Below the pieces are notes generated by a model. That model had not been told where the DNA came from and ran no database searches. It saw only the letters and a list, made by a program, of their open reading frames with translations. A program made the position numbers and the translations under genes. A stretch of 64,000 nt of DNA from positions 67,828 to 131,827 of the forward strand of contig SOIM01000058.1 of the NCBI GenBank assembly GCA_004377185.1, written 5' to 3'. Positions 10,587 through 60,160 of this stretch are shown piece by piece; within the stretch, counting starts at the first letter, position 1; the number at the start of each line of letters is the position of its first letter. The DNA comes from Methanomassiliicoccales archaeon (GTDB taxonomy: Archaea; Thermoplasmatota; Thermoplasmata; RBG-16-68-12; SOIM01).

Positions 10587-11711
10587 TCAGAAAAGATCCT
10601 CCCCTTCAAGCATCTCCAGAAATGCCTCCACGCGTGTCTTGAACTGTCCAACTGCTACCGTCACATCCAGTTCCAAGAACAACGTTTGTATGCCATTCGA
10701 TTCCAGTGTCTTTTTTATGGAAGGAATGTCCAACTCATGAGGGTCGCAGAACTTCTGCTGTAGCAGTATCGCACCGCTCACATTCCAATCCTTTGCAATG
10801 TTGAGAATATGGGGAATCCTAGTCCTTACCTCCCAGTCCTTGCTCGGGCAGGGAGGTCTCTGCACGTACCTCTCAGCTATTGCCAGGAGCCTGTCCCCGT
10901 TCGGCTGGACATCATTCCAAAAATACCTGCTGCCAGTGCAGTGGTCATCAGCAACGATTGTCGAACCGCAGCCTTCCACCATATCTACGAATTTCGTGTC
11001 GTCATTCTCGCTGCCCAGAATCATCAGCCTTTGACCCGTTGATCTCTCCAGCTTTCTCCCCTGAAGTTCCTTGATCGTCTCCTCAAGAATGTCACTGTGG
11101 TCGTTCTTCTCGATCGTCTGACTTGAAACGGCCATATACATTGCTTCCAGACCTGTCATCGGCGGGTCCGCCTCTTTCCGAAGCTCGTAGGCCTCTCGCA
11201 TCAACCGCCTGTTCTTGTTCATCATCTCTATTCCGCGATCCAGGTCTTCGTCCGTAATCTCTTTTTCCGTCCAATCCTCAACTGCCTTCTTGAACCTCTC
11301 GAGTTCGCCTTTCAGATAGGGGACGGCCCGAGGACTCTGCACCTTGTTGGGCATGGGAAGGTAGTAGCTGAATGGAACGGGTATGTGCATCTCCCAGCTG
11401 GTGTAGGCTTGCCTGATGTGCAGGCACGATTGTGCGATCATTAAACCATCAAGATAGTCGTATCTCCCCTTCAATCCTTGAGCCAGACAGTCCCTGCAGA
11501 ACGGGCAGAACATACCGAAGATATGCGGTTCGGTTACGTCCTGCGGCTCATGACTGCCCAGAATGCGTACCGGCAACACGTCCGCGGCCAGGAGTATCTC
11601 CTCCGGCACATACGTGCAGAAATAGCCCATCACCTTTCCACCAGTCTTCTCCTTCCATTCCTTAGCGTACTCGTGTTTTGCATCGTACCATTCTTTGAAC
11701 ATCTCAATCAT
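10587..11711 (-). CDS. 2-hydroxyacyl-CoA dehydratase / benzoyl-CoA reductase catalytic subunit (HgdA/BcrC/BadD family)
   Basis: Start at internal ATG 11711 (M100 of the track ORF) with a GGAGAGGAGGATGAGG SD, overlapping the GNAT stop by ATGA. 375 aa, HgdA-like Cys-containing fold. Confidence 0.8.
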   Translation of the reverse strand: MIEMFKEWYDAKHEYAKEWKEKTGGKVMGYFCTYVPEEILLAADVLPVRILGSHEPQDVTEPHIFGMFCPFCRDCLAQGLKGRYDYLDGLMIAQSCLHIRQAYTSWEMHIPVPFSYYLPMPNKVQSPRAVPYLKGELERFKKAVEDWTEKEITDEDLDRGIEMMNKNRRLMREAYELRKEADPPMTGLEAMYMAVSSQTIEKNDHSDILEETIKELQGRKLERSTGQRLMILGSENDDTKFVDMVEGCGSTIVADDHCTGSRYFWNDVQPNGDRLLAIAERYVQRPPCPSKDWEVRTRIPHILNIAKDWNVSGAILLQQKFCDPHELDIPSIKKTLESNGIQTLFLELDVTVAVGQFKTRVEAFLEMLEGEDLF

Positions 11712-12148
11712 TTCCTCATCCTCCTCTCCAGGTTGATGAATTCGCTCCTTTCGAAGCCTATTGATTTGAAGAATGCAAGCAGGTCGCTCGAATCCCATCT
11801 CACGGCTGTGAAAATCCTGTTTATCCCCTTTGAGTTGAAACCTCTGAGCATGGCCTTTCCGAGCTTCTTGCCAATCCCTTGACCCATGTAGTTGGGATCG
11901 ATACCCACATCCACGAGCCAGCCGCTCTTGGTGACACCGAAATCCAGCGTCTTGGTCTCCCCTATGATGAAGCCCACTACCTTCTTGCTGAATGTTGCCA
12001 CAAAACATTGATTATCACTCTCGAGCAGACGAATGGCGATCTCGTGCTGCCAGAACTTGGGCACCTTCTTCTTGGTTATGGATTCTCTTATGGCTATGGT
12101 TGCCGGGATGTCTTTCTCCCTCATCCTTCTTATTTCTACAGTGCTCAT
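11708..12148 (-). CDS. GNAT-family N-acetyltransferase
   Basis: 146 aa, GNAT-family fold. GAGGTGGGGG SD. Confidence 0.8.
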   Translation of the reverse strand: MSTVEIRRMREKDIPATIAIRESITKKKVPKFWQHEIAIRLLESDNQCFVATFSKKVVGFIIGETKTLDFGVTKSGWLVDVGIDPNYMGQGIGKKLGKAMLRGFNSKGINRIFTAVRWDSSDLLAFFKSIGFERSEFINLERRMRK

Positions 12149-12157
12149 TCCCCCACC

Positions 12158-12301
12158 TCATTCAAGTCTTATGATCTTGACCTTCTTGCCAACCCAGTCA
12201 GGCGGGAGGTATACCCTTCCGCTGTTTCCAGCCCGTTTGACTTCCTTCTCGATCATTTCCTGTCCGAAAACCTCGAACTTGGAATCTTTTGCTCTTGCCA
12301 T
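12158..12301 (-). CDS. AbrB/MazE-like swapped-hairpin small DNA-binding protein (DUF2080-like), first gene of the operon
   Basis: 47-aa ORF, below the track cutoff: MARAKDSKFEVFGQEMIEKEVKRAGNSGRVYLPPDWVGKKVKIIRLE. Carries the GNSGRVYLP..VGKKV hallmark of AbrB/SpoVT-type barrels. An AT-rich promoter lies immediately upstream. Confidence 0.5.
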   Translation of the reverse strand: MARAKDSKFEVFGQEMIEKEVKRAGNSGRVYLPPDWVGKKVKIIRLE

Positions 12302-12420: not shown

Positions 12421-12497
12421 AGCGTATCTTCCTTAGGAAAATCGGAGATGTGAGATGAACCGTCAGTGGTTTGGGATATGCCGGGTGTTCTGGTTTC

Positions 12498-15400
12498 TCA
12501 GCCTTCCACATCTTCCAGCATTTCGGGCCCCTTGGGTTCTTCTTCTGGAGGGGGTGGTGTCTCTTCCTCCGCAGGTGCTTCGGCTGGTTCTTCCGCAGGT
12601 GCTTCGGTTGGTTCTTCCGCAGGTGCTTCGGTTGGTGCCTCTGCCGGTTCTTCCGGCGGTGGCGGGAGTTCCTCTTCGGCAGGGGGTACCTCTGCAACCT
12701 TCGGCTTTCTCCTCAGCATAAGGCCAACCACAGCAACCACCACTACGATGACGATTATCAAGACAAGTAGCCACCAGTATTCCTCCAAGAAGGACGGAGC
12801 AGCTTTCTCTGCTACTGTGATAGTGCCCTGGACCTCGTTCCAATTACCATTCTCATCGCGAGCGGAGATCTTGTAGTCGTAGTCTCCCGCCTCGTCAAAG
12901 GAGAATTCGTACCCGTACACACCTCCACCCAAGTCATCCATAGATCTGTTGGACAGAACGATTAGGGCATCTGAAACCCTGACAATCTCAATACGTACCC
13001 TGTCCACACCGCTCGCATCGTCGACAGTTGCTTCGAATGTGACAGTTTCCCCGGCCTTTGGTTTCTCTGGGTCAACCGTAACATCGATTGTGGGAGGCGT
13101 CAGCTCACGAATATCGAAGCCTCCAGAAGCTGAAGCCCAATTGTCGCTCGTATCGTTCGCCCAGATTACGAAAGTGTACTCTCCTTCGATATCGAAGTCG
13201 ACTTCATAGTAGTATTCGTCGTCGCCAATGTCATACCTCATTGAGTAGTTTCCCACCTCCTCGCCGTCCGGGTCGGTGATGTTAACCCACACTTCGTCGA
13301 CTTGAACATTGTCCTGCACTGTTGCGGAAATCCTTACGTCCTCGCCCGGGGCTTGCGGATCGGGTTCTGCTTTTTGATCCGTTATTGTCGGACTTTGGGT
13401 ATCAGGTGGCGCACGAATTATTAAATCAACACAGGCGGTAAATGATACGTTGTGGTTAGGCACTTCATCCCATCCATGGACGCATACTTGATACGTTCCA
13501 AGCGCCATACCAGAGGTATAGATTGTGACGTTCACGTCCTCAGAAGGTCCGTCGAACGCCCCATCCAACGGGAACATAGGTGTGGTTGTGAGCCAATCTC
13601 TCTCGATGGTGTAGTTCGCTCCAGCGATATTCGACCCTAGTGCCGGATTGTCGTCGATCGTAGCGTTCAGGTAGACTGTTGTACCGGGCCAGACAGTGGC
13701 GGAAATCGGGTCCTCATTCAAAAGAACGCTCAGGACGTATGGAGGTTTATCATCCACGGAAGAGATGTTCAGTATGGCACATGCACCAATCGAATTGTAG
13801 TTCGGGACATCATCCCAACCGTACACGCAAACCTCATAGTCAGCATCCGCCCAACCAGTGGTGTCGATGAAACTTGGGGTAGAGGTCACGTCTTCGGTGA
13901 AGGTATCAAACGCACCATCCGCGGCCTGCAACGGTACACTGGTGAGCCAATCGCCATCTATTGTGTAGTTTGCTCCTTGGATTGCGGTACTTCCTCGACC
14001 TCCAGTGTCGTCCACCGTTGCATTGACAAAAACTGAAGTATCAGGCATAACAGAAACTGTTGGCTGACCATTCAGTGTAACGCCTGCCACGGCAGGGTCG
14101 ATATCATCAAGAACGATTATCTGAACTGCAGGTGCCGAGTCATTATAGTTCATATCTACGTCCCAAGCGTGCACATAGTAATCGAAGACACCAACTGAAG
14201 TAGGCACAAGAATGTTGGCGGTCACATTCTCCGTGGGTTGGTCGAACGACATGTCCACTGGGAACATATCAATCCCTGGCCAAAAATCAACCAGAGGCGT
14301 TGTGTAGTTGGCCCCCCAGACTACTGAAGAACCGGTAGTGGTATCATCTATTGTGGCGTTCAGAGTGGCTGTGGCCGGAAGTGTGGACAGCAAGAAAACT
14401 GCAGACGGTCCACCATCTATCTCGATATTGCTGATTTGTGGTGCCAGATCATCCAGGACAGTGACAGATGTGCATGAACCCGTGGTGTTGTAGTTCGGAA
14501 CTATGTCCTGGCCGTACACACAGTAGATTGTTGTTCCAACTGGAGGTGTGATCACCGCGGTAACATCTTCGGTGGGCGAATCAAACATGCCATCCGCTGG
14601 ATTCATGAGAGTGCTGGTCGCCCAGTCTTGAACACCGATCGTATAGTTCGCACCACCAATGGGCAAGTTGCCCGTTCCGCTATCATCGATTGTCGCGTTC
14701 AAATATATGACTGGAGGAATATTGGAGAGGTCGTAGATTGGATTCATTTGACCATTAATCCTCACATTCAGTACCTGAGGGGCGTTCGTGTCAGGAGCAC
14801 CTTGGCCGGCAGTCAGATTGACCCACACGTAGTCAATCGTATCGAACGGATCCGGGTCCATCAGAGGGTCGACCACGAAATTCGGAGTGCCTATGCCACT
14901 TATAGAAACATTGACAACTGGGTCATAGCCCCAAAGATTGAAGCCCGCGGGCAACAGCCCATTGAGAATGTTCCTCTCCGCATCAGTATCATAGGTCGTA
15001 TTTATCTCAAGTCTGTGCGTGCTGGCAACGGGTATGGTTGTGTTGGAAGTGAAATTCGCTACCATGAGACCCGAAGGAGGATTTGGGGATACGACCGAAC
15101 CCAACAAATCAAAGATGAATGAGTCTGTGCCTGGGACCAGATCATAATGGATTCCATCCACATAGAATTGGTCAATTGTGGTCGAGAAAATCGGGGGCGC
15201 AGCGCCACCAGACATAAAAAGGAAAACATCCAATTCAGTCTGGTTGACAAAGCCGTCCCTGTTCCCGACCACCATGTCTATCATGAACCTCATCGATTGG
15301 TTGTCCACCCCCATTTCAAACCTCGTATCGGAAACAACGTTATCCCAGTCGGTCATCACCAGGGTCGTATTCATTAGGTCAGCAACTGGCAATTCAAGCG

Positions 15401-17546
15401 ACCTTGTGACCTCAGCAGAGCCAACAACAGATGTCTGGGATATGTTAGACTGCAAATCCCAACTGTCTATGAGCACAAAGAAGTCTCCGTCAAATACCGT
15501 GACCTCATAATAGCCCGTGGAGTTGGAGGTTGTCTGCATCATCCAGCCGTAGGTGCCGTTCAATACGACGATGTCAGCCATATCCACGGAAGACCCGCTG
15601 GTTGCATTATACACATATCCCCATATGGTCGCTGGCGGGAGGGACAGAAAGTCAGCAGCGAAGTAGAGACCTGTCATATGCATGTCCGAATCGAGGAAAA
15701 GAGGTCCCATCGGATCGAAAGACATCAAATTCATGAAGACGAAATATGGTCCGTCCGCTCCATGTCTGCTTATGTCTATCCCGCTGAATCTGAGAGGAAT
15801 GAATGTGGCCCCAGCACTGAGATTCGCAATCTGCTGAGCCCCGGTAATCGGCATGAAAAATGGGTCCAACAGCGTAGCAACGACCGCATACCACCCGGGA
15901 TCGTTCACAAGAATCGAAGCATTTACGACCAAGAAATCATACACACCGTCCGGAGGAGCGTCTATGTCCAGGGCGTAGTCACTGTGGGGAGGATTGAAAA
16001 GCGCTGCAGGCAAGTCGAAATCTGTTGCGAGATATAGCTGGGTCAGGAAGGAGTCCGAATCAAGTGTGAGAAACATCATATCAAGGACATCGAGGAACAC
16101 AAGATAGGGGCCATCAATTCCAGACATAGAGATGTCCGAGCCCGGGAACAGAAGATCCACCGTCTGTGAACCGATATCCAGCCAGGTTGAGTTCGTTGCT
16201 GACGTGATGAAGAACATTCCAGTTTGGTCGTACAAGTATCCCCAGACAGTATAACTGCCGGGAGCGTCCACGGTGAGGTTTGCGTTCACCACCAGGAAAT
16301 TGTAGTCCGAATCACCATCAGTGTCGAGCCCATAGTCCCAGTGCGGTGGAGAGAATGCACATGGAGGATTGGGCTCAAAATCGGTGAACAGATATGCGGC
16401 TGTGACGTGCGTGTCGCTGTCAAGCAGATTCCAGAACTCATCATAGAGATTGAGGTCTATCAGGTAGGGTCCATCCACTCCAAAATTGAAAATCTGGAAA
16501 CCGTAGAACTTCAAATCAACTGTCTGGATTCCCGTTGAAAGATAAGTCACATTCTGGGTCCAACCGAAGGCGGTGGACCCGTCCACACTGTAATTCCCTG
16601 CAGTGGTCACATCTACGCTGGCAGTGACAACGAGGAATTCATACAGAAGATTCCCGTTTGTATCCCAGCCCCAATCACTATGTGGCGGCAAGAAAGTCGC
16701 AGGTGGGAATGCGAAATCGGTTGCCAAATACGGGTTCGTGAAGTAGGTGTCGTTGTGCAAGAAATTGAACATACTGTCATACAAGTAAAGGTCAACCCTG
16801 TACGGTCCATCAATACCAGAACCGCGAATAAGATACCCCAAGAAACCGATGTCGACGGTGTGCGTGCCAACGGTCAGGAAGGTGAAATTGACCTGGAAAT
16901 CTATGAATGTCATTCCAGTAGCGTCAAGAAGCGTCGCATCGAGCTCATAGTTGCCTGAGACGTTGACGGTCACCTCCGCACCTACGACGAGAAGGTCCCA
17001 CAGCATATCCCCATTGTTATCGATGCCCTGATCCGAGTGGGGAGGGGTGAAGTAGGCGTCCGGACCTTCGAAATCGGTCGCCAAATAGGCGCTTGTGGTA
17101 TGAGTGTTAAGATCCAAAGGCATGAATAAATCGTCAAACAACACCACCTCGACTTGATAGGGGCCGTCATAGCCAGATTGACGGATTATGAACCCAGGGA
17201 ACTTCACATTTATCCATTGGGCTCCAAGACCTAGATCGGCCATTGCAAATTGGCTGTCTATCATGATCATTCCCGAGTTGTCATAGAGGTTACCTATGAG
17301 ATAGAAGATTCCAGCGCCTGTTACATCAACGCTCGCATTCACAATGAGTTCGTCATAGAGGCCGTTTGGCGGCATATCAGTATCCACGGCCTGGTCCGAG
17401 TGGGGAGGCGTAAAACTCCCGCTCGAGGCGCCCACGATGCCAGCAATCCCAGAGAACACACCGAAGACCATGAATGCCGCTATCGTCAGCACAAACATTC
17501 TTCCGGCTCGCTCACTAGAGGGTTTTGAACAGGTTGCATCTTTCAT
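12498..17546 (-). CDS. Giant cell-surface protein: signal peptide, about 7 tandem ~95-aa beta-sandwich repeats, further Ig-like/PKD-like domains, C-terminal TM helix and acidic Pro/Glu-rich tail
   Basis: Start at M10 (ATG 17546) with GGAGGAAG SD; 1682 aa from this start (the track ORF from GTG 17573 is 1691 aa). Hydrophobic signal MFVLTIAAFMVFGVF. Recurring FTPPHSD...DGPY...LYD repeats. WANDTSDNW-type domains. Tail WWLLVLIIVIVVVVAVVGL then (AEEPTEAP)n. Many N-x-S/T sequons. Confidence 0.8.
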   Translation of the reverse strand: MKDATCSKPSSERAGRMFVLTIAAFMVFGVFSGIAGIVGASSGSFTPPHSDQAVDTDMPPNGLYDELIVNASVDVTGAGIFYLIGNLYDNSGMIMIDSQFAMADLGLGAQWINVKFPGFIIRQSGYDGPYQVEVVLFDDLFMPLDLNTHTTSAYLATDFEGPDAYFTPPHSDQGIDNNGDMLWDLLVVGAEVTVNVSGNYELDATLLDATGMTFIDFQVNFTFLTVGTHTVDIGFLGYLIRGSGIDGPYRVDLYLYDSMFNFLHNDTYFTNPYLATDFAFPPATFLPPHSDWGWDTNGNLLYEFLVVTASVDVTTAGNYSVDGSTAFGWTQNVTYLSTGIQTVDLKFYGFQIFNFGVDGPYLIDLNLYDEFWNLLDSDTHVTAAYLFTDFEPNPPCAFSPPHWDYGLDTDGDSDYNFLVVNANLTVDAPGSYTVWGYLYDQTGMFFITSATNSTWLDIGSQTVDLLFPGSDISMSGIDGPYLVFLDVLDMMFLTLDSDSFLTQLYLATDFDLPAALFNPPHSDYALDIDAPPDGVYDFLVVNASILVNDPGWYAVVATLLDPFFMPITGAQQIANLSAGATFIPLRFSGIDISRHGADGPYFVFMNLMSFDPMGPLFLDSDMHMTGLYFAADFLSLPPATIWGYVYNATSGSSVDMADIVVLNGTYGWMMQTTSNSTGYYEVTVFDGDFFVLIDSWDLQSNISQTSVVGSAEVTRSLELPVADLMNTTLVMTDWDNVVSDTRFEMGVDNQSMRFMIDMVVGNRDGFVNQTELDVFLFMSGGAAPPIFSTTIDQFYVDGIHYDLVPGTDSFIFDLLGSVVSPNPPSGLMVANFTSNTTIPVASTHRLEINTTYDTDAERNILNGLLPAGFNLWGYDPVVNVSISGIGTPNFVVDPLMDPDPFDTIDYVWVNLTAGQGAPDTNAPQVLNVRINGQMNPIYDLSNIPPVIYLNATIDDSGTGNLPIGGANYTIGVQDWATSTLMNPADGMFDSPTEDVTAVITPPVGTTIYCVYGQDIVPNYNTTGSCTSVTVLDDLAPQISNIEIDGGPSAVFLLSTLPATATLNATIDDTTTGSSVVWGANYTTPLVDFWPGIDMFPVDMSFDQPTENVTANILVPTSVGVFDYYVHAWDVDMNYNDSAPAVQIIVLDDIDPAVAGVTLNGQPTVSVMPDTSVFVNATVDDTGGRGSTAIQGANYTIDGDWLTSVPLQAADGAFDTFTEDVTSTPSFIDTTGWADADYEVCVYGWDDVPNYNSIGACAILNISSVDDKPPYVLSVLLNEDPISATVWPGTTVYLNATIDDNPALGSNIAGANYTIERDWLTTTPMFPLDGAFDGPSEDVNVTIYTSGMALGTYQVCVHGWDEVPNHNVSFTACVDLIIRAPPDTQSPTITDQKAEPDPQAPGEDVRISATVQDNVQVDEVWVNITDPDGEEVGNYSMRYDIGDDEYYYEVDFDIEGEYTFVIWANDTSDNWASASGGFDIRELTPPTIDVTVDPEKPKAGETVTFEATVDDASGVDRVRIEIVRVSDALIVLSNRSMDDLGGGVYGYEFSFDEAGDYDYKISARDENGNWNEVQGTITVAEKAAPSFLEEYWWLLVLIIVIVVVVAVVGLMLRRKPKVAEVPPAEEELPPPPEEPAEAPTEAPAEEPTEAPAEEPAEAPAEEETPPPPEEEPKGPEMLEDVEG
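12571..12666. repeat. 24-bp tandem coding repeat x4 (gcaggtgcttcggttggttcttcc) encoding the (AEEPTEAP)n tail of the giant surface protein
   Basis: Four head-to-tail 24-nt units read directly from the sequence, with 1-3 substitutions each. Confidence 0.8.
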
Positions 17547-17716
17547 CCACGCTTCCTCCAAACCTTTTCCCACGTTGTCAAATGCTTTATCTATTAAAAT
17601 CTTGGCTTCTCAATTCCCATTTGAATAACTGACCATTCTCGCATATCTCGCAGCGAAATCGCTTTTCCAAAACAATAAATATCGCTGTTGGCTTACGCCC
17701 GCATGGGAGGAGTGAT

Positions 17717-25893: not shown

Positions 25894-27561
25894 TCACTTC
25901 TGTCTTGGAACCCGGTAATATTCCTCCTCGGGAGGCTTCTTCCTGAGAACGAGATATAGAACCAGGGCGGTAAGGACCGCACCCACAATTGCCACAATTA
26001 TCAAAGCCAGAGTGACACCGGGGACACCTGGAAGTCCATCAGGGGGAGGATGAGTTCTCGCCACAGTCACCGGGCCACCACTGATTGCTGTGTGTGAACT
26101 GAAGTCATCGGAGATGACTGCTTTGATGTAATAGCTTCCTTCGTTAACCAAAGAGACGTTCCAGATGTAGTAGTCGCTGACGTCATCCTCACTGACCGTG
26201 ACCAATTCCGTAAGAAGGGAAGGCGAGCCGGCTGGATAGTAGTACAGTTGGATTGTCGCATCACTGTCCGGGTCAAAGTCCACCCATTCGATCCGGAACT
26301 CATGTTCCACTGTGTCATTGTCTCCATCTGGCTCCGCAACGAATATGGATGGTGGCACATCTGAGATCAGAACGGTGAAAATGTTGCTACCAGGAACCAC
26401 TGCCGCGATATTGGTGAATCCCTCTTTCCCAAACTCAAGGTCTGCAAGAACGAAGGACTCCGCCCAACCATCAATCGGTATCTCAATTCTATCGTAGGTT
26501 GAAGTTGCGTTGTTGTAGTACAGTATGGTCAATAATTGAGGTTCACCCCAGCTACTGCAGAGTATGTCCTTGAACCCGTCCAGATCCGCGTCCCCCACGA
26601 CGAGAGAGACCGAGTTGGTGTTGTTGATGGGATTGGATGTCTGGAAAGGAAAATTCCCCGTGCCGTCATTCTCAAGGACCCATACATCGCCGTCATCTTT
26701 GCAGAGCACCACGATATCTAGAGAAGAGTTTCCGGTGACATTCTCAAGATACACATCCCACGGCGATCTGCCAACGTTATAATCTCTGTGACTGGCAAAA
26801 ACGCCTGCTCCGTTGTTGAAGAGAACGGTTACGTTGTTATCGTCCCTGTTGGCTGTTACCACATCATTAAAGCCGTCACCATTCAAATCCGCCACGAAGA
26901 CGCTGTGGGGATCCGCGCCAACCGAGTAGTTGGTGGGGAGAGAGAAAGAGCCAGAACCATCGTTGAACAGAACGGAAACCGAATTGGATTCCCCTCCGTT
27001 CGCGGTTATGATGTCGATATCATTGTTGCCGTCCTCTCCCAGATCCGCAAGGAAGACGGCCGCTGGATCGTCACCCACGGGATACTGCTGGAAGGCTGAG
27101 AAGGACCCGTCCCCGTCGTTCAAGAGAACAGACACGTAGTCGAAATACTCGCTGGGGGGACCGACGGTATCTATCTCCACGCGGGAGACCGCCAGGTCAA
27201 TGTAACCGTCCCCATCGAGGTCCGCGGCGTCAATGCTCCTCGGCTCCTGGCCGACTGAATATGTCCATTTTACGTCCTCAAAGGTTCCATTGCCGTTGTT
27301 GAGTGCGACTGAGACCGAGCTAGCGTTCCTATTGACTGTTATCAGATCGAGATGTCCATTGCCGTTGAAATCGTCAGCCACAATGTCCCAAGGAGAGCGG
27401 CCCACTTCCACGTCGACTTGGGCGATGAACAAGTCACCCCTATCTGCAAACGAAGCGCTGGGAAGAAGCACAAAGCACACGCACAGGATTAGAACGAGTA
27501 AAGATGCCCTCTTTGATATCAGTGAAAGATGTTTTGCACACCTCTTGGCTGCCAATGTCAC
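25894..27561 (-). CDS. FG-GAP/VCBS-repeat beta-propeller surface protein with signal peptide, C-terminal TM anchor and short acidic tail
   Basis: Repeated DxNGDGxxD/FG-GAP-like units (ADFNGNGHLD, ADLDGDGYID, ADLNGDGFND, GDADLDGFKD). Signal LLVLILCVCFVLLPSASFA. C-terminus LALIIVAIVGAVLTALVLYLVLRKKPPEEE. Start is GTG 27561 or TTG 27555. Confidence 0.8.
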   Translation of the reverse strand: MTLAAKRCAKHLSLISKRASLLVLILCVCFVLLPSASFADRGDLFIAQVDVEVGRSPWDIVADDFNGNGHLDLITVNRNASSVSVALNNGNGTFEDVKWTYSVGQEPRSIDAADLDGDGYIDLAVSRVEIDTVGPPSEYFDYVSVLLNDGDGSFSAFQQYPVGDDPAAVFLADLGEDGNNDIDIITANGGESNSVSVLFNDGSGSFSLPTNYSVGADPHSVFVADLNGDGFNDVVTANRDDNNVTVLFNNGAGVFASHRDYNVGRSPWDVYLENVTGNSSLDIVVLCKDDGDVWVLENDGTGNFPFQTSNPINNTNSVSLVVGDADLDGFKDILCSSWGEPQLLTILYYNNATSTYDRIEIPIDGWAESFVLADLEFGKEGFTNIAAVVPGSNIFTVLISDVPPSIFVAEPDGDNDTVEHEFRIEWVDFDPDSDATIQLYYYPAGSPSLLTELVTVSEDDVSDYYIWNVSLVNEGSYYIKAVISDDFSSHTAISGGPVTVARTHPPPDGLPGVPGVTLALIIVAIVGAVLTALVLYLVLRKKPPEEEYYRVPRQK

Positions 27562-27727
27562 TCCCTCGCCAATGGATGAATATCATTGACCAAGAACGAT
27601 AAATAGTTTGCCAAGAAGCACCTCTTGACCGAAAAACCTCCTAGCCCTTATGGAATTGTCTCGCCTTGAACGCTCTGCAGAATATGAGAGCGGGACAACA
27701 AAAACCCCGTCGTATTGCGTCGATTTT

Positions 27728-27947
27728 TTGGTTATACCTATTGCCAAAGATTCTGTTTCTGACTTCAAATGCTGCTGTTTTTGGTTATACCTATTGCCAA
27801 AGATTCTCTTTCTGACTTCAAATGCTGCTGTTTTTGGTTATACCTATTGCCAAAAACTAAATCGGGGAGAGAGAAAAAATGCATGGATCCAGTACTTACA
27901 CTCACCTCTCCTGTCATCCCTTTTGTTTGGTTATACCTGTAACCAAA
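27728..27947. promoter_or_regulatory. Array of four partially palindromic 20-23-bp boxes (TTGGTTATACCTATTGCCAA x3 at exact 53-bp spacing, plus TTTGGTTATACCTGTAACCAAA) upstream of a small ORF; candidate operator array
   Basis: Boxes at 27728-27747, 27781-27800, 27834-27853 and 27926-27947. The first two intervening 30-bp segments are identical except for one base, i.e. a tandem 53-bp duplication. Box 4 has 8-bp inverted arms TTTGGTTA/TAACCAAA and sits 28 bp before the downstream start codon. Confidence 0.5.
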
Positions 27948-27974: not shown

Positions 27975-28280
27975 GTGATTGGGAAGGAAACAATGGAGAA
28001 ACTGGGCCTCGAAGAGGCAACGATAGTCTCTTTCGACATTCCCAGCACAGACAAATCCAGGAGAAGCATCATTCAAAGATTCCTCCATGGGCGCAGCGAC
28101 ACAAGGAACCTGAACGGAAAGATGAAGACATACAGATATCCAGGCCTATTGGATGAGGGCGGATTCAGATTGGGGCAATCGGTGTTTCTCCTTCCCCCTG
28201 ATCTTGCATCTAGACTGATCCTGAAACTGAGGGAACTGAAGATAAGCCATCGTTATTGGGATGTGTTGGTCCACGGGTAG
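27975..28280 (+). CDS. Small hypothetical protein with weak Cas2/VapD-like sequence pattern; candidate DNA-binding or nuclease-fold regulator
   Basis: GTG 27975 with GGAGGG SD; 101 aa (95 from ATG 27993). ATIVSFDIPSTDKSRRSIIQRFL ... GFRLGQSVFLLPPDLASRLILKLREL resembles Cas2 beta1-alpha1 and the (G)xRvQxSVFec...L..L segment, with a roughly 20-aa insertion. No other cas genes in the window. Low-confidence recollection-based call. Confidence 0.45.
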   Translation: MIGKETMEKLGLEEATIVSFDIPSTDKSRRSIIQRFLHGRSDTRNLNGKMKTYRYPGLLDEGGFRLGQSVFLLPPDLASRLILKLRELKISHRYWDVLVHG

Positions 28281-36641: not shown

Positions 36642-38471
36642 TTAAAATGTTCCAGGCCTATAAATGAAGGTGAAGTAGTAGTAGAGAATGAGATAGACTC
36701 CAACGATCACCAGTATGAGACCGCTGACCTTCTTTATCGTGTCGGTATGAGCGCTCAGTTTCTGCACGGACTCCTGACCGAAGGCGGACAGCATGAAGGT
36801 TATCGCTACCATCAGGAGAAGAATGGTAATAGAGAATATCAGGATTAGCAATATGCCATCCAGCAGAGTTCCTGACACGATCCCTTCCAAAAGCAATCCG
36901 ACATAGAGCGGCGCAGTGCACGCGGAGGCCGCTGCCCCGTAACCAATCCCGTAACTGAACAACTTGGCGTAGTAACCTTTCTCGCTTTCAGCGTCCGGGT
37001 CTTTCTCACCAAAAAGCTTCACTCTGAGTTTCTGGAAAGGACGAATGAGAGCATGGTACTGAAGATTCGTGAACATGAGAGCCCCGAGAATGATGAGAAT
37101 TATCGCCACAATCGGGCTGAGGTAAACAGCATATCTTTCCACACCAGCTGTCTTTCCAAGAACGATTGCTATTATCCCGATTATCAGAAACACGAGGATT
37201 ATTCCAAAACCAGATACGAATCCACTTCCGAGAACTTTCTTCATCGATTTCTTCTTCTCTTCAGCTTCCGTGGTGAGATAGTAACTGATGTAACCAGGAA
37301 GCATCGGGAAGGAGCAGGGTGAGAAATAGGTGGCGAACCCAATGAAAACTGCGGTTGCGAGGATACCCACTAAATGCAAGGAAATAACCTGGGCGGTACC
37401 CTCAATGGCGGCACCAATCTCGCTTCTGAGCTCTTCAACACTAACACCGCTGGTGGAAATCTCATAGGTGGGATATCTGTCCTTGTTTATGACAACCAAC
37501 TTGGGAAGATCCTCAACCGAGAAGACATCAAATGTAAGACTGGCCGTGTCTCTAGCAATCGTCCAAGTCACTCCCTGAGCATCCCTGAACTCGCGAAGGG
37601 CCAAATCAGTGTCCGTACCCACGGCAATGGAAATGACTTCGATCTCGTTCTCATCAAAGACAGCGACGGCGTCCTCCAGCTTTTCCCTTAATTCCTCGCA
37701 AGGCCTGCAACTGGTTGCCATGAAGTCCAGAATGATGACCTCATCTGGGTAATCTGAGAGATTCCAAGGATTTCCATCTATGTCAACGAGTGAGAAGTCT
37801 TCCACTTTGTTGACCTTGCCAGAAAGCCCGCTCAAGCTGATCGCACCATAGAGAATTGCTATTGTCAGAAAGAGGACGATTCCGACAACCAGGACCTTGT
37901 TCGATCCTGTGGTGATTTTCTTCCTTTTTCTGTAAATGAGAATTCCAGCTAGCGAGACCATCAGAACTCCCAAAATCACCTCCGCAGCAATCACTTCGAT
38001 CGGAATCTCAATGGCGACCTCGATAGGCGGCAGTGCACCAGTGTAGTTGTAGTAGTAGTAATCATGATCTCCGTCTCCAGGAGCGTAGCCAATGGTCTGG
38101 TTTGCATAAATGACCCTGATCTTATACCCTATCATAGTGCCGCCGTCAAAGGGCCTGGTTATGTTGTAACGGAACGTCTGGTTTCCCAGGTCCTCCATAA
38201 TCTCGAAGTAGCATGTGCCGACAGTCATTGTTTCGGGGTCGACCGTGCAATACTGGGTCTCAACAACATTTACCTCGGTGATATTCTCAATCTCAGCATG
38301 CACAGATACAGACTGACCTGCAAAGGGTTCTTCAGGCGTGTGATAAACGTTCAATATGTTGCCATCAAGGGCCGAGGCGTTCGGAGAGGTGAACAAAAAC
38401 GCAAATAGCAGAACCAGAAGTGAGAGGAGGGCTGTCAGACCTCTCTTTGTGTTAGATACTCTGAACACCAA
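36642..38471 (-). CDS. DsbD-family thiol:disulfide interchange protein: extracytoplasmic Ig-like domain, TlpA/ResA-like thioredoxin domain (CRPC), CcdA-type membrane domain
   Basis: Signal peptide, HTP...ANQT Ig-like domain, TM, DFMATSCRPCEE thioredoxin motif, FSPCSFPMLPGY and ASACTAPL CcdA motifs. Confidence 0.8.
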   Translation of the reverse strand: MVFRVSNTKRGLTALLSLLVLLFAFLFTSPNASALDGNILNVYHTPEEPFAGQSVSVHAEIENITEVNVVETQYCTVDPETMTVGTCYFEIMEDLGNQTFRYNITRPFDGGTMIGYKIRVIYANQTIGYAPGDGDHDYYYYNYTGALPPIEVAIEIPIEVIAAEVILGVLMVSLAGILIYRKRKKITTGSNKVLVVGIVLFLTIAILYGAISLSGLSGKVNKVEDFSLVDIDGNPWNLSDYPDEVIILDFMATSCRPCEELREKLEDAVAVFDENEIEVISIAVGTDTDLALREFRDAQGVTWTIARDTASLTFDVFSVEDLPKLVVINKDRYPTYEISTSGVSVEELRSEIGAAIEGTAQVISLHLVGILATAVFIGFATYFSPCSFPMLPGYISYYLTTEAEEKKKSMKKVLGSGFVSGFGIILVFLIIGIIAIVLGKTAGVERYAVYLSPIVAIILIILGALMFTNLQYHALIRPFQKLRVKLFGEKDPDAESEKGYYAKLFSYGIGYGAAASACTAPLYVGLLLEGIVSGTLLDGILLILIFSITILLLMVAITFMLSAFGQESVQKLSAHTDTIKKVSGLILVIVGVYLILYYYFTFIYRPGTF

Positions 38472-55166: not shown

Positions 55167-56387
55167 TTATTGCTCTCTTGGTTCTTCTTCCTCTTTCGAC
55201 TCTTCCTCTGGCAACTCTTCCTCTGGCAACTCTTCCTCTGGCAACTCTTCCTCTGGAAGTCTACCTCTCCCTCGTGCGGCTGCCGCAACAGCTGCGATGA
55301 TGATTACTATTATGATTATGGCAATGATTATCCAGAGCCAGGGGAGCTCTTCGGTCGGTTCTCCGTCAGCAGCAGACACTGTGATCTCATGAGGTGAGGT
55401 TGTGGGATTCGTTGCGGGATGAGTTGCGGTATTAGTACCATCCGTTGCAGAGATGTAGTACTCGACACCATCCGTGGTCACATCATCTGACGGGATGGTT
55501 CTAGTGTAAGTGTCATCTGTTCTGGTCATCGTGACAGCCGTGAAGTCAGCGTCACCTGTCTTTCGGTAGTACAGAGTTGCACTTTCCATGCCCAAACCAT
55601 CGTCTGTGATCGTGGCAGTAATGGTGATTGACTGTTCAGCTGTCGCGGTTGTCACAGCCGTGTGAGTTATCGTTGGAGCATCTGTATCTTCAGAAATCGC
55701 AATCGTGGAGTTAACAGTCCGATTGTCATTGTCGTTTGTATCATTTGCCCAGATAAAGTAAGTTACATCACCAGCAGAAGATTGCGCAGGGATGGTATAG
55801 TTGTAATTGCCTGCGACCAAGACCATCGACTCATTAGCGGTGATGCCGGCCACATCTGTGTAGGTCAAATTCACTTCATTGACTGCTACGTTGTCTGACA
55901 CTTGAGCAGAAATTGTCATTTCTCGACCTACCCAAGCAGCAACTACAGGCGTATGAGTTATCTCAGGAGATTCTGTATCTTCTGAGATTACGATCTCAAA
56001 GTCAATGGTTCTGTTCCAATTGTCGCTTGTATCTGTATCATTTGCCGAAATATTGTAGAAGACACTGCCAGCAGAAGATTGTGCAGGGATTATAAAGCTA
56101 TAGTTGTCGTCCCAGTTAGCCATCGTCACATTGTCCCATGCACCGCTGACTTCTGTGTAGTTCAACCACACTTCATACACGTCATCAACATCCGTCACTT
56201 TGGCAGTAATGTTGATGTCGATACCTACTGTTCCGTCAGTTACTGGGGTATGATCTATCTCGGGACCAAAGGCATCCGCCATCACCGTTGGCATATTCAC
56301 AAGCAAGGCACCAAAGATCATAGCTGTAACAGCAATGATTGATGCCCATCGCACACTATGAGCCGAGAATTGTCGTTTGGCTTTCAT
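55167..56387 (-). CDS. Cell-surface protein with three ~95-aa HTP/ANDT-signature Ig-like repeats, C-terminal TM anchor and (EELPE)n acidic tail
   Basis: Start ATG 56387 (GGAGG SD) giving signal MKAKRQFSAHSVRWASIIAVTAMIFGALLV. Repeats each contain HTPV...NY(N/S)(Y/F)(T/I)IPAQSSAG.V.Y.I.AND(T). Tail WLWIIIAIIIIVIIIAAVAAAARGRGRLPEEELPEEELPEEELPEEE. Confidence 0.75.
   Translation of the reverse strand: MKAKRQFSAHSVRWASIIAVTAMIFGALLVNMPTVMADAFGPEIDHTPVTDGTVGIDINITAKVTDVDDVYEVWLNYTEVSGAWDNVTMANWDDNYSFIIPAQSSAGSVFYNISANDTDTSDNWNRTIDFEIVISEDTESPEITHTPVVAAWVGREMTISAQVSDNVAVNEVNLTYTDVAGITANESMVLVAGNYNYTIPAQSSAGDVTYFIWANDTNDNDNRTVNSTIAISEDTDAPTITHTAVTTATAEQSITITATITDDGLGMESATLYYRKTGDADFTAVTMTRTDDTYTRTIPSDDVTTDGVEYYISATDGTNTATHPATNPTTSPHEITVSAADGEPTEELPWLWIIIAIIIIVIIIAAVAAAARGRGRLPEEELPEEELPEEELPEEESKEEEEPREQ
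55201..55260. repeat. 15-bp tandem coding repeat x4 (actcttcctctggca) encoding the (LPEEE)n tail
   Basis: Four perfect or near-perfect 15-nt units read from the sequence. Confidence 0.8.
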
Positions 56388-57045: not shown

Positions 57046-57211
57046 CTTCCTTCGACGGGCTACTGGGCTTGTGTAATAAGAACCTCGACGGGAGAGATGG
57101 GTGAATGTATTCCCGATGTCAGCTGCGTTATCGAGTTCGTCTTGAGAATGGCCAGATAGACCAAAAAGACTTAAGTACGCACCATTGACTACCGCTTTAC
57201 AAAGGGGTAAG

Positions 57212-60160
57212 ATGGAATCGAGAAGAGTTAACAGCTCAATCCTCTTTGCAATCGTCCTTGTGTTGATAGTTCAGGTTGGGGCAAGCAGTTTGGAACCAAG
57301 TGAAGAGAACCCAATTGAGAGGACTGCCATTGTTCTCACCAGAACCTTGACGTTTGATATTGAACTTTCGGAGCTTGAACTGTTGAAGATGGGCAACTAT
57401 GACTACATTACTTCGGAAGGTTTGCGACGCTTCACGCGCCCTGGGGAGCCACTACTTCCAATGAAAACGATCGTCACTGAGTTCGACAAGAATGCGGATA
57501 TCCTTGATGTTGCCCTGGCGTACGAAGAGCGTGTTCCAATAGAGGGGACGTTCGACATAGCGCCCACACCAAAGCCTGTGACCTGGGACAGTTGGGGAAT
57601 CGGTGAGCCCGAGAAGAATCCTGAAGTCTACGCGCTTGATGACTATTTCCCTGGAGAGGTTTTTTCATACAGGATCGGAGAAGACAATTACAAGAAGTAT
57701 CTCTACGTCCACATCTACCCGGTCCAATACATCCCTAGCAGGGGGAGAATCGAAATAATCACCGATATCGCTCTGGACATCACCTACCAGAATTCTTCGG
57801 ATATGGAACCGCTGGCAGATGACCTGAGTGCAGAATGTTTAATCATCACCCCTCAAAGCCTCTATCCAGAAGCGAAACAGCTTGCCGATTTCCATGAGGC
57901 CTCTCTCGGCGTGCCAACTTCGGTTGTGAACACCACATGGATCGAAGTTAACTACCTTGAGGCTCCGGACCCGCCCTACATTGGGTATTCGGACAGTGGA
58001 CTAAACGGTTGGAATCAGATCGTTGGGTACGACTACAGCCTGGCCAAGAAGACGGTGAACTACCTGGATGACACGAGTGCGCATCCGAATCTCGAGTATG
58101 TGCTCCTGTATGGAAACGCCCAGATGGTTCCTCCGAGTTTCTACTGGTACGATTCCTGGGTGGGAGGATTTATGCCCTATCAGGGTTGGATACCTACGGA
58201 CTTCTTCTACAGCTCCCCCGACTATGACCTCACGCCTGACTATGCGGTTGGCAGACTGCCTGTGGACGGAAGCACGAGAGCCCAAACCCTGAATCAGAAG
58301 ATCGTGAACTGGTATGCGAATCTCTTGCCCAGTTGGTTCAACAAAGCCGTGGTTGCGGGTGGAACGCCCTTCAACACTCCATTCTACGTGGGGGAACTCA
58401 TAACCCAAGATGCTGTCAACAAGGGATACTTTGACGGGTTCGACATAACGAAGATGTTCCTTTCGGACTGGAAGTTCGACCGCGTGAATGTGCTGAACGC
58501 GCTGTCGGGCGGATATGGAGTCATGTATGAAATCGGTCACGGGTTGGGTGACGTGATGATTGTGAACGACAGCGGCATGCCCGGGGAGATGATCACTACC
58601 ACGGACATCATGAGCCTGTCCCCGAATAGTAACGTACCAGTTGTTGTTTCCATCGCCTGCATCAACGGTGCTTTTGACAATACCATCATGGCAAACAAAC
58701 CGTTCACGTCATCAAATTCCATAGGAGAAAGCCTGCTCTTCTCCCCTGCTGGAGCTATAGCCTACGTCGGTAGTTCCAGGGTGAGCACAGGTATGTCTAT
58801 CGGGATTCTTGAGGAGGGAGAAGTGAAGATAACTGGCGAGACTACCATGGTCAGCTTGCTCACGAGTTTCTGGAGAGCGCGCTACGAGGGTGCTGGAACC
58901 CTGGGATCCACGTCCATGGATGCTATGACCTACTTCTCTTCTGGCGAAGATATGGGCAGTATTGAGAACAAGAGGGCCCTTTTCGAATACGTTCTCCTGG
59001 GCAACCCTGTCCTCCCGTTCACGCATCCACAACAGGACAAATACAGCGTGCCCAGAACAGAAATCCTGGATGTGAGGGGTTACGAATACCGCGGTAATCC
59101 CATGTTGATTGAGGGTCAGGTCCCTGTCGTTGGGTTGAACAGACCGAATGCGGTGGATGTGGTCGCGGATTCCCCGAGCGTAAATTTCAAGATTGTCGAT
59201 TCGGAGGCCGTCGTAACACTGGAATACGGTTCGAACACAACAACGAACAACCAGACACGGTATGACTTCACACCCTCAAGGACTTCCTTGCTTTTGCTGA
59301 GGGCGGAGGGAGAGGACGGCAAGGAAGGCTGGCAGTACATGGTCTCGAAGTTCGTACCCAACTTTCCCAAAGCCCCGGTCCTGAGGCTTGCAAGACTGAG
59401 CGGACCGAATGATGAAGATGTTCTGATAGACTGGTACAAGTCTACTGATGAGGGCGATCCGCGCGGCACACTGAACTACGAAGTGTACCGGTCTTTGAAC
59501 TCATTATCCGGTCCATATAGCAAGATCGCAGACGTCCCAGCTACTGGACAATCAAACTACAACTACATAGATGCAGGTCGAGGAGATGGCGATACAGACA
59601 ATTTCTACTATGTGCAATCGGTGAACTTCACAGCACAGAGCGCAAGGAGCTACTACGCAGCGAAGAAAGCAGGGTTGTTCTCAGCAGGCTGGTGGTTGAT
59701 ATCGCTACCACTCGTACAGTATGACAAGACCACAAGTGCCGTCTTCAGGACACTGGACTTCGAAACGGTTGTGACTTATGTGGCGTCCGACCCCATTGAT
59801 CCGTGGAAGAGGTATGACTCCTTCAAACCCTACGCGGACCTGGATTATGTGGATCACACAATGGGCCTTTGGGTCAATGTCTCCTCGTCCGACTATCTAA
59901 CGATAGCTGGATTGGTGCCGAAAAGCACTCCGATCGTTTTGCGTCCGGGGTGGAATCTGGTTGGTTATCCCACTTTTGATGGGAGAAATGTGACTACCGA
60001 GTTCGCAGGGATTAGCTATGACAGAATCGAATTCTACGAGCCCACATCGCCCCCCTATTTGCTGCATTGCTTGTTACCGACCGAGGATATGTTTTCAGGC
60101 GGCGGATACTGGATCAAGGTGAGCTCTCAGCAAGTCTGGACGGTATACAACCCAGCTTAG
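57212..60160 (+). CDS. Secreted gingipain-like cysteine peptidase (family C25, clan CD) with Fn3-like and C-terminal sorting/anchor-like domains
   Basis: ATG 57212 with signal peptide ILFAIVLVLIVQVGASS. YVLLYGNAQMVPPSFYW, PDYAVGRLPVDG, catalytic dyad context EIGHGLGD and VVVSIACINGAF. 982 aa from ATG 57212 (991-aa track ORF). Confidence 0.8.
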   Translation: MESRRVNSSILFAIVLVLIVQVGASSLEPSEENPIERTAIVLTRTLTFDIELSELELLKMGNYDYITSEGLRRFTRPGEPLLPMKTIVTEFDKNADILDVALAYEERVPIEGTFDIAPTPKPVTWDSWGIGEPEKNPEVYALDDYFPGEVFSYRIGEDNYKKYLYVHIYPVQYIPSRGRIEIITDIALDITYQNSSDMEPLADDLSAECLIITPQSLYPEAKQLADFHEASLGVPTSVVNTTWIEVNYLEAPDPPYIGYSDSGLNGWNQIVGYDYSLAKKTVNYLDDTSAHPNLEYVLLYGNAQMVPPSFYWYDSWVGGFMPYQGWIPTDFFYSSPDYDLTPDYAVGRLPVDGSTRAQTLNQKIVNWYANLLPSWFNKAVVAGGTPFNTPFYVGELITQDAVNKGYFDGFDITKMFLSDWKFDRVNVLNALSGGYGVMYEIGHGLGDVMIVNDSGMPGEMITTTDIMSLSPNSNVPVVVSIACINGAFDNTIMANKPFTSSNSIGESLLFSPAGAIAYVGSSRVSTGMSIGILEEGEVKITGETTMVSLLTSFWRARYEGAGTLGSTSMDAMTYFSSGEDMGSIENKRALFEYVLLGNPVLPFTHPQQDKYSVPRTEILDVRGYEYRGNPMLIEGQVPVVGLNRPNAVDVVADSPSVNFKIVDSEAVVTLEYGSNTTTNNQTRYDFTPSRTSLLLLRAEGEDGKEGWQYMVSKFVPNFPKAPVLRLARLSGPNDEDVLIDWYKSTDEGDPRGTLNYEVYRSLNSLSGPYSKIADVPATGQSNYNYIDAGRGDGDTDNFYYVQSVNFTAQSARSYYAAKKAGLFSAGWWLISLPLVQYDKTTSAVFRTLDFETVVTYVASDPIDPWKRYDSFKPYADLDYVDHTMGLWVNVSSSDYLTIAGLVPKSTPIVLRPGWNLVGYPTFDGRNVTTEFAGISYDRIEFYEPTSPPYLLHCLLPTEDMFSGGGYWIKVSSQQVWTVYNPA

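Follow-up and report, generated by a model that had tools for sequence, protein, structure and literature searches.

The archaeal proteins closest in layout to the one described here include the PGF-CTERM and PEF-CTERM substrates of archaeosortases. These are surface glycoproteins that begin with a signal peptide and have, towards the C-terminus, a hydrophobic helix and then basic residues. The S-layer glycoproteins of haloarchaea have a signal peptide, an acidic ectodomain rich in N-x-S/T sequons and a C-terminal membrane helix. Among the domain families concerned, DUF4785 was found in the literature only in lists, as a Legionella type II secretion substrate family, and DUF835 has been described as the inactivated-KaiC (iKaiC) output domain of archaeal response regulators (PMC5847659). 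A search for literature on surface proteins of archaea or Thermoplasmata that bear cytoplasmic or proline-rich tails gave no relevant result. The present analysis concerns a giant surface protein of 1682 residues encoded in a 64,000-nucleotide stretch of a Methanomassiliicoccales archaeon (contig SOIM01000058.1, positions 67,828 to 131,827; the whole stretch is referred to as the window). The protein is of a familiar kind, a repeat-built, membrane-anchored archaeal surface glycoprotein to which no specific function is assigned. What is new relative to the literature found is a lineage-wide anchor and acidic-tail module, a conserved PPPP motif, a tandem iKaiC paralogue and a cassette-like allele swap; the basic classification as a repeat-built surface protein is left unchanged by these findings.

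The complete coding sequence, stop codon included, occupies 12498..17546 on the minus strand. It lies within a single long open reading frame (ORF; 12498-17573) that gives 1682 aa from the ATG at 17546, in agreement with the original prediction, which had been made from the letters alone. A GGAGG is found 8-11 nt 5' of this ATG, with an AT-rich, TATA-like element still further upstream. The protein is identical to NCBI TET89297.1 (a 'hypothetical protein' of 'MAG: Methanomassiliicoccales archaeon', MAG standing for metagenome-assembled genome), and the exact sequence is present also on an independent Logan assembly. In other frames, two ORFs (126 and 136 aa) overlap with the tail-coding DNA (12463-12876, both strands); these are low-complexity Ser/Gly/Ala or Arg/Gly strings, and constitute repeat artefacts, not genes. 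A Sec-type signal peptide (aa 1-41, 17424..17546, minus) is recognized from an Arg-containing positive stretch, a hydrophobic core of ~23 aa and an A-x-A-like site. It ends VGA/SSG, which aligns with VRA/S in orthologues, and is likely cut after IVGA. Taken together with the features described below, the protein is probably a type-I, heavily N-glycosylated protein of the coat or adhesin type, with a tail that would serve as cytoplasmic linker or docking site. Two points weigh against this interpretation: cleavage of the signal peptide is itself putative, and an uncleaved N-terminal anchor would tether the protein at both ends; moreover, the named homologues are all 'hypothetical protein' or carry a generic Ig-like, PKD or carboxypeptidase-regulatory domain name.

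The C-terminal end consists of two conserved elements. The anchor module (aa 1584-1616, 12699..12797, minus), delimited by conservation among orthologues, comprises the sequence PSFLEEYWW, a 22-aa helix and RRKPK. The hydrophobic helix (aa 1590-1611) is single and C-terminal, and Y1590, W1591, W1592, R1613 and P1615 are invariant or nearly invariant across 16 orthologues. The C-terminal anchor is made up of an aromatic YWW belt, the helix and the RRKP stop-transfer cluster. Following RRKPK is an acidic Pro/Glu/Ala tail (aa 1617-1682, 12501..12698, minus), assigned from composition and charge and probably cytoplasmic. The 71 aa after the helix include 23 Glu, 1 Asp and 20 Pro (28% Pro, 32% Glu; net charge -19), a composition that implies disorder. 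Glutamate is thus used near-exclusively in the tail, as opposed to an ectodomain that favours aspartate (172 Asp, 45 Glu). The type-I topology with a cytoplasmic tail that had been proposed for the protein agrees with the signal peptide and the single helix, and an outside-N, inside-C orientation is supported further by the basic cluster after the helix and by paralogues that carry a Zn ribbon and DUF835, both cytoplasmic domain types, in the position of the tail.

Comparison with close orthologues reveals which parts of the tail are retained. All 15 of the 15 compared have the helix and a Pro/Glu tail of 52-69 aa, in which indels come in units of 4 or 8 aa, and the order of elements is the same: a conserved SF[FL]xx[YF]WW, helix and [KR][KR]KPKV are followed by a Pro/Glu stretch of variable length, a conserved E-x-PPPP-[ED][ED] and, in most orthologues, a terminal E-x-L-[DE]-[DE]-[VL]-E. 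In the window the conserved PPPP corresponds to aa 1664-1667 (12546..12557, minus; 16-orthologue alignment), within E-E-T-PPPP-E-E-E, and a second PPPP is read from the sequence at aa 1628-1631 (12654-12665, minus); a stretch of the tail reads EETPPPPEEEPKGPEMLEDVEG. P1658, P1664, P1666 and P1667 are invariant down to 50% identity, and P1665 nearly so, with an intervening stretch that varies in length. The tail could thus be a flexible linker in which E-x-PPPP-[ED][ED] and the terminal acidic-hydrophobic motif dock a putative cytoplasmic partner. The tail contains no Pfam domain and no recognizable signalling domain, and a similarity to the WW-domain-binding protein 1 (WBP-1) was discarded as not significant (E 0.21).

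The DNA that encodes the tail is itself repetitive. As had been noted from the letters, two tails in the window are encoded by near-perfect tandem repeats, and both were recovered by Tandem Repeats Finder (TRF) and on reading the sequence: a 24-bp repeat encoding (PTEAPAEE)n in the giant gene (12564..12653, minus; 3.0-3.8 copies, 89-95% matches) and a 15-bp repeat encoding (PEEEL)n in the smaller type-I gene at 55167-56387 (55186..55268, minus; 5.6 copies, 91% matches). The same-species syntenic orthologue, locus L011, has tail DNA identical to that of the window from the RRKPK codons to the stop except for exactly one 24-bp unit fewer. Likewise, protein P0156 from another NCBI assembly equals the 55167 protein of the window except for one EELPE unit fewer. 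The arrays are unlikely to be collapsed assembly artefacts: at 75-90 bp they are below typical read length, and L001, an independent assembly of the window allele, has the same tail-repeat copy number. Degenerate 12- or 24-bp periodicity is seen in the tail DNA of other giant-protein orthologues, and in P0126, which is orthologous to the 55167 protein, the tail carries a repeat of its own, the independent (EEAPE)4. Single-unit differences between strains in both tails support a change of tail length by slippage, through which the length would drift over short tandem DNA repeats; the stronger term 'hypervariable', used in the original prediction, goes beyond what a few assemblies can carry.

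Repeats of this kind raise the alternative that the tail is a functionless low-complexity spacer, made and resized by slippage, in which the PPPP and the acidity are by-products of composition. The near-perfect repeats and natural one-unit variants are what such an origin would leave behind, as are the many indels among orthologue tails of 52-69 aa and the poor conservation of the tails of orthologues of a third window protein, with FG-GAP repeats. Conversely, the PPPP prolines, and in most orthologues the terminal motif, are kept to ~50% identity despite the variable sequence in between, and the choice of Glu over Asp sets the tail apart from the ectodomain. Acidity is kept in 126 of the 139 helix-bearing matches listed in the profile search described below, on unrelated ectodomains. 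PPPP occurs in 46/79 homologue tails in the repeat-protein family against 14.6 expected, above all of 1000 composition-preserving shuffles (none above 25), a test that overstates significance as the tails are of related, not independent, sequences. In the wider set that shares the anchor module the enrichment of PPPP is only modest (25 of 138, with 15.0 expected), and the 55167 and FG-GAP tails lack the motif; these points count against a docking role. On balance, a functionless spacer is considered rather unlikely, and the reading of the tail as linker or docking site is retained.

The anchor is shared far beyond the orthologues. A profile of anchor plus tail built from 13 sequences (A5: [YF]WW, helix, [KR]3-4P, acidic tail) was searched against 1.84 billion representative proteins, and yielded 226 representative clusters at E<=1e-3; the query is hydrophobic and of low complexity, so that the E-values may be optimistic. 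Among the 147 new matches listed, 139 show a hydrophobic helix close to the C-terminus, inside the final 160 residues, where the profile match falls too, and the net-acidic tails of 126 of these 139 have a median length of 52 aa. In the same 147, [YFW]WW stands at the start of the helix in 94 and a basic cluster followed by Pro in 96; a Zn ribbon is found at the end in 11 and SHOCT-like helices in several. The two repeat families of the giant protein occur in only 3 and 4 of them, and Pfam scans of nine matches identified PKD, Big_5, NosD/beta-helix, CarboxypepD_reg, TSP3, BNR or Ig_Rha78A_N domains. Those matches that carry organism names are from Thermoplasmata. In P0281, P0290, P0291, P0300, P0302, P0307, P0315, P0332 and P0350, all from Thermoplasmata, the same anchor and an acidic linker lead into different small cytoplasmic end modules: in some a CxxCG...CxxCG zinc ribbon (Pfam Zn_ribbon_3), in others SHOCT-like helices.

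The existence of a class of anchored proteins with acidic tails, as first suggested by three proteins of the window, is thus borne out on unrelated ectodomains, but its membership differs from that first proposed. The giant protein scores 96 bits against A5 by construction, the 55167 protein is a weak match (E 8.6e-5), and the FG-GAP protein gives no match (E 0.48). The 55167 protein (55167..56387, minus) is a type-I protein with a signal peptide, three ANDT-type domains, PWLW, a helix, RGRGR and an (LPEEE)n tail, and its close orthologues all have acidic tails. The FG-GAP/VCBS protein (25894..27561, minus; Pfam FG-GAP_3 4.7e-36) is a type-I protein that matches the architecture only loosely: after RKK its tail reads PPEEEYYRVPRQK, 13 aa and charge-neutral (as listed, RKKPPEEEYYRVPRQK). 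The tails of its orthologues are 16-32 aa long, Pro-rich, weakly acidic, of the RKKP[EK]PTE type and poorly conserved. A single tail family comprising all three was therefore rejected, with the FG-GAP protein excluded by its score and by orthologue tails that are barely acidic; acidic tails hold for the giant and 55167 proteins alone. The A5 scores indicate that the 'family' is real as a lineage anchoring module, covering two of the three proteins, one of them weakly.

An anchor of this form could instead be a sorting signal, in which YWW, helix and KRKKP are recognized by an unrecognized archaeosortase-like enzyme and the tail is discarded on cleavage. The layout of short motif, helix and basic cluster does resemble exosortase and archaeosortase signals, it is conserved across many unrelated ectodomains, and two distant homologues, P0042 and P0118, end in a PEF-CTERM-like PIPEFSG...RRRL. 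However, known sorting signals stop a few residues past the basic cluster, and here 17-115 residues more follow, with motifs that are conserved and, in some cases, a folded domain of the Zn-ribbon, SHOCT-like or DUF835 type. As had been read from the letters, no PGF, PEF or LPXTG motif precedes the helix of the giant protein, where the sequence is AAPSFLEEYWW. The three window proteins had no match to NCBIfam sorting-domain models at E<=0.1, in a scan that was insensitive (it also missed the PEF-like end of P0042). The presence of the helix and Pro/Glu tail in every close orthologue compared runs counter to the idea that homologues always carry PGF-CTERM; the PEF-like ends, together with a PGF-pre-PGF domain in one homologue, place sortase-type ends in the wider family, not in this orthologous group. 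A cleaved signal is hence regarded as highly improbable, and the anchor is taken to be a retained membrane helix.

Relatives of the full protein point in the same taxonomic direction. The first homologue search returned 281 proteins at E<=1e-5, and the named homologues are from MAGs labelled Thermoplasmata, Thermoplasmatota, Methanobacteriota or Methanomassiliicoccales, with one exception, P0107, labelled candidate division NC10 bacterium. A single-protein scan of genome contigs gave no relatives; an alignment-based scan then found loci, in species-representative genomes from the same kind of source. The N-terminal repeat is present in 2-25 copies per homologue and the second, GANYT repeat in 2-5. 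Within the set, a paralogous subgroup (P0017, P0019-P0024 and P0026) has a linker, a CxxC...CxxC ribbon and DUF835 instead of the tail, but shares the ectodomain and the SF[FL]xx[YF]WW anchor (52-56% identity over 74-88% of the length). In two genomes the tail-type gene at the syntenic position has a DUF835-type paralogue of 1723-1804 aa as its immediate upstream neighbour, the two forming a tandem (L013 10001-15172, L014 9001-14415).

This arrangement speaks for a sensor or receptor, in which the ectodomain would bind an external ligand or surface and the tail would relay a signal, possibly with the DUF835/iKaiC-bearing paralogue; DUF835 is listed among the output domains of archaeal two-component systems. 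Against a sensor, the tail-type gene is alone at the locus in the window, L011 and L016, and no DUF835 is present in the 64-kb window, where tblastn with the DUF835 region matched nothing beyond the shared Ig-like part. The tail lacks any recognizable signalling domain, and a large number of beta-sandwich repeats, varying from 2 to 25, is seen more typically in spacer or adhesin rods than in sensors of a specific ligand. A signalling role is therefore judged unlikely. A wider proposal, equally doubtful in our view, is that anchor and acidic Pro/Glu tail form an uncurated Thermoplasmata-wide module that couples the coat to cytoplasmic machinery, with ectodomain cassettes exchanged between alleles under virus or cell-contact pressure. 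The cytoplasmic part would then be an acidic linker, a PPPP motif, a Zn ribbon, a SHOCT-like helix or a Zn ribbon with iKaiC, and the whole an archaeal counterpart of eukaryotic adhesion-receptor tails.

The ectodomain of ~1550 aa is nearly all Ig-like beta-sandwiches, ~14 domains in a chain, with 5 + 4 + 2 beta-sandwich repeats forming most of the protein, as expected for an adhesin. It begins with five tandem repeats of ~119 aa (15642..17420, minus; aa 43-163, 164-282, 283-395, 396-514 and 515-635), each marked by PPH[SW]D (aa 47, 168, 287, 400 and 519) and DGPY (aa 127, 246, 358, 478 and 598). The period is 113-121 aa and the pairwise identity 40-50%, in place of the about seven diverged FTPPHSD...DGPY repeats of ~95 aa first counted. 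A check with domain hidden Markov models, as had been suggested for this repeat, gave a match to Pfam PF20943 (DUF4785_3rd) above the gathering threshold (45 bits against a cut-off of 24.5, E 1.2e-11). Next is a CarboxypepD_reg-like beta-sandwich (aa 640-720, 15387..15629, minus), for which the PF13620 match, spanning aa 640-690, is sub-threshold (E 2.5e-4, 21.8 bits against 32.3); several orthologues carry the same precomputed assignment. The ~200 residues that follow (aa 721-921, 14784..15386, minus) have no Pfam match, even at E<=1, and are conserved in orthologues. A second repeat family, absent from the scheme of the original prediction, comprises four tandem 'GANYT' repeats of ~114 aa (G1-G4; 13407..14783, minus; aa 922-1034, 1035-1147, 1148-1265 and 1266-1380), mutually 31-51% identical and without a Pfam match.

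Closest to the membrane are two Ig-like 'ANDT' domains (aa 1381-1582, 12801..13406, minus). Of these, aa 1382-1457 match Pfam PF15418 (DUF4625; 34 bits against a gathering cut-off of 27), and the pair is homologous to domains of the 55167 protein (E 3e-9, 40% identity), so that the recurrence proposed from the letters between these two proteins stands. The further recurrence claimed for the N-terminus of the DsbD-like protein holds marginally at best: similarity to the ANDT domains of the giant protein extends over 79 aa at 27% identity (pairwise E 7e-6), and to the 55167 protein none is detectable. The DsbD/CcdA-type membrane protein in question (36642-38471, minus) has, as read from its translation, an unusual front part: a signal peptide, an Ig-like domain, a helix and a thioredoxin-like domain, ahead of a DsbD transmembrane core.

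A sequence search of the PDB with the whole giant protein gave no match at E<=1, and repeat pairs were modelled with AlphaFold2 from alignments built on repeat pairs of homologues. Both the R2-R3 pair and the G3-G4 pair were predicted as two beta-sandwiches (predicted local distance difference test, pLDDT, 97.6 and 94.7, respectively), and the models identify both repeat types with high confidence as generic Ig-like beta-sandwiches. The fold of the N-terminal repeat is that of the solved DUF4785 protein (4kh9, lpg0956). No catalytic fold was matched as a whole by the modelled repeat pairs, and the modelled parts thus look structural or adhesive. The ectodomain would project as an elongated rod of ~50 nm, and the rod could mediate contact with particles, other cells or viruses, or just form a glycoprotein coat.

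Calcium may in addition stiffen the N-terminal repeats by binding to Dx[DN]xDG-like loops. In many folds Dx[DN]xDG is known to bind Ca2+ (PMC3123361). The loop after PPHSD resembles this motif: compared over 629 repeats, position 1 is Asp in 99%, position 3 Asp or Asn in 93% and position 5 Asp or Asn in 75%. Position 6 is Gly in only 37% of the 629, and those of the window's own repeats that have the standard loop length lack Gly at this position of the motif. The lack of Gly in the window's repeats argues against the site, and Ca2+ binding is consequently put forward only as a hypothesis.

The composition of the ectodomain is in line with exposure at the surface. The many N-x-S/T sequons remarked on from the letters amount to 40, against 12.7 +/- 3.2 in shuffled sequences, and all 40 are in the ectodomain, between aa 70 and 1533; in the 55167 protein 13 are found against 4.3 expected. 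The window's cytoplasmic proteins have 0-0.3 sequons per 100 aa and 12-15% Lys + Arg. Judged by its sequons, the giant protein would be N-glycosylated. With 172 Asp and 45 Glu but just 8 Lys and 23 Arg, its ectodomain carries a net charge of -186. Lys and Arg are very scarce in the type-I ectodomains of the window (12498-17546 and 55167-56387), at 2.0% in that of the giant protein. Also encoded in the window is a secreted C25 peptidase of the gingipain family (57185-60160); the gingipains, founders of the C25 family, cleave after Arg or Lys. As a speculation, the depletion might shield the cell's own coat from the C25 peptidase.

The haloarchaeal S-layer glycoproteins named above likewise combine a signal peptide with an acidic ectodomain rich in sequons and a membrane helix at the C-terminus, and the giant protein could by this likeness be the true S-layer protein of the organism, arranged in a two-dimensional lattice. 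However, its domain copy number varies and its membrane-proximal module has been swapped, as detailed below, neither of which would be expected for a lattice with fixed contacts, and its anchor is used by many other proteins of the lineage. An S-layer role is thus improbable, and a glycosylated coat or adhesin remains the favoured interpretation.

The gene belongs to a block that is syntenic down to 46% surface-protein identity. The order is FG-GAP protein, two CoA-transferase genes, short-chain dehydrogenase, thiolase, ChsH2, deacetylase, ABC transporter and enoyl-CoA hydratase, then the surface protein, followed by DUF2080, GNAT acetyltransferase and HGD-D/BcrAD genes. These neighbours are metabolic, and offer no functional lead. 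Comparison with L011, whose protein is P0002 and in which most of the surrounding DNA differs by 0-2%, revealed a mosaic. The ~2 kb upstream of the gene, and the DNA from mid-anchor through ~200 bp 3' of the stop, are 100% identical. At the protein level, identity is 100% for the signal peptide, 94% for the N-terminal repeats, with a ratio of nonsynonymous to synonymous substitution rates (dN/dS) of 0.39, 92.7% for the middle region, 93.3% for G1-G3 and 97.8% for anchor plus tail. In G4 and the two ANDT domains it is 61% and 58%, respectively, with dS saturated in both. The divergent module (G4 and both ANDT domains; aa 1266-1582, 12801..13751, minus; 57-61% identical) has other nearest relatives: over these residues the window is nearest to P0009 (66.6%), with P0002 fifth (56.9%), and the corresponding segment of P0002 is closest to P0003 (71%).

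The regional identity profile, the saturated dS and the incongruent nearest neighbours together indicate that the membrane-proximal module was replaced by a distant allele. Unequal crossing-over was considered for the difference between four GANYT repeats in the window and five in L011, and rejected, since the whole of aa 1266-1582 is diverged, with saturated dS and other nearest relatives; the same pattern assigns the copy-number difference to the cassette replacement. With dN/dS below 1 throughout, the finding is one of allele exchange and not of demonstrated positive selection. The outward domains would then diversify by inter-allele recombination, between fixed ends, which are the conserved signal peptide on one side and the anchor with its tail on the other. 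A second island of divergence from L011 lies at 11773-12172, within 11708-12148 and just beyond it, the former being the GNAT acetyltransferase gene (minus), where 21-27% of nucleotides are mismatched; its flanks, the DUF2080 and HGD-D genes, are 95-100% identical to L011.

Further features were observed elsewhere in the window. Upstream of the FG-GAP gene, a 53-bp tandem repeat occupies intergenic positions 27725-27854 (2.5 copies, 98% matches), each unit carrying the near-palindrome TTTGGTTATACCTATTGCCAAA; a fourth, variant copy, TTTGGTTATACCTGTAACCAAA, is located ~70 bp beyond the array (about 27920-27945). By its sequence the array looks like a set of operator sites before a small ORF (~27975-28265, plus) that has no Pfam match. 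The C25 peptidase (57185-60160) and the convergent NosD/beta-helix-PKD protein (60157-62322) have a common C-terminal domain of ~200 aa (59435-60157, plus, and 60160-60882, minus; 39% identity, E 8e-43). This domain, which matches no Pfam family and lacks a transmembrane helix, may provide an alternative means of surface attachment or sorting; P0029 has a similar end.

Uncultured Thermoplasmata are abundant heterotrophs of sediment and the subsurface, and little is apparently known about how they build and anchor their cell surface. The anchor-plus-tail signature provides a searchable handle on their type-I surface proteome, in the form of 226 representative clusters, and the modelling supplies two high-confidence domain models for repeats with little or no curation. 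PPPP in an acidic context is a candidate short linear motif, through which the cytoplasmic side of surface proteins becomes testable. The restriction of the allele swap to the exposed part suggests a likely target of virus or cell-contact selection.

Set against the systems named at the outset, the giant protein differs from PGF-CTERM and PEF-CTERM substrates in having neither a PGF nor a PEF motif, and in a helix that is not terminal, with 66 aa of conserved tail past RRKPK. Its N-terminal repeat is the domain of the Legionella DUF4785 proteins (PF20943; 4kh9, lpg0956), in tandem here, with 5 copies and up to 25 in homologues, and in a protein that, unlike those, is archaeal and membrane-anchored. 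Its paralogues fuse the same ectodomain and anchor to a Zn ribbon and DUF835 and so connect it to archaeal DUF835 (iKaiC) signalling proteins, although the giant protein itself lacks DUF835 and those described are soluble REC-DUF835 response regulators (PMC5847659). With integrins and cadherins it has in common a multi-domain beta-sandwich ectodomain, a single helix and a short, probably disordered tail with a proline/acidic motif. This likeness is one of analogy only, with no sequence relationship; a neighbouring window protein carries FG-GAP repeats. Bacterial RTX adhesins and 'Ca_tandemer' proteins share with it the long tandem beta-sandwich rod, the variable copy number, the acidic character and a Dx[DN]xDG-like loop in each N-terminal repeat. 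In contrast to the RTX adhesins, the giant protein lacks both a type I secretion signal and a module for retention in the outer membrane; it carries an N-terminal Sec signal peptide and is anchored in the cytoplasmic membrane by its own C-terminal helix.

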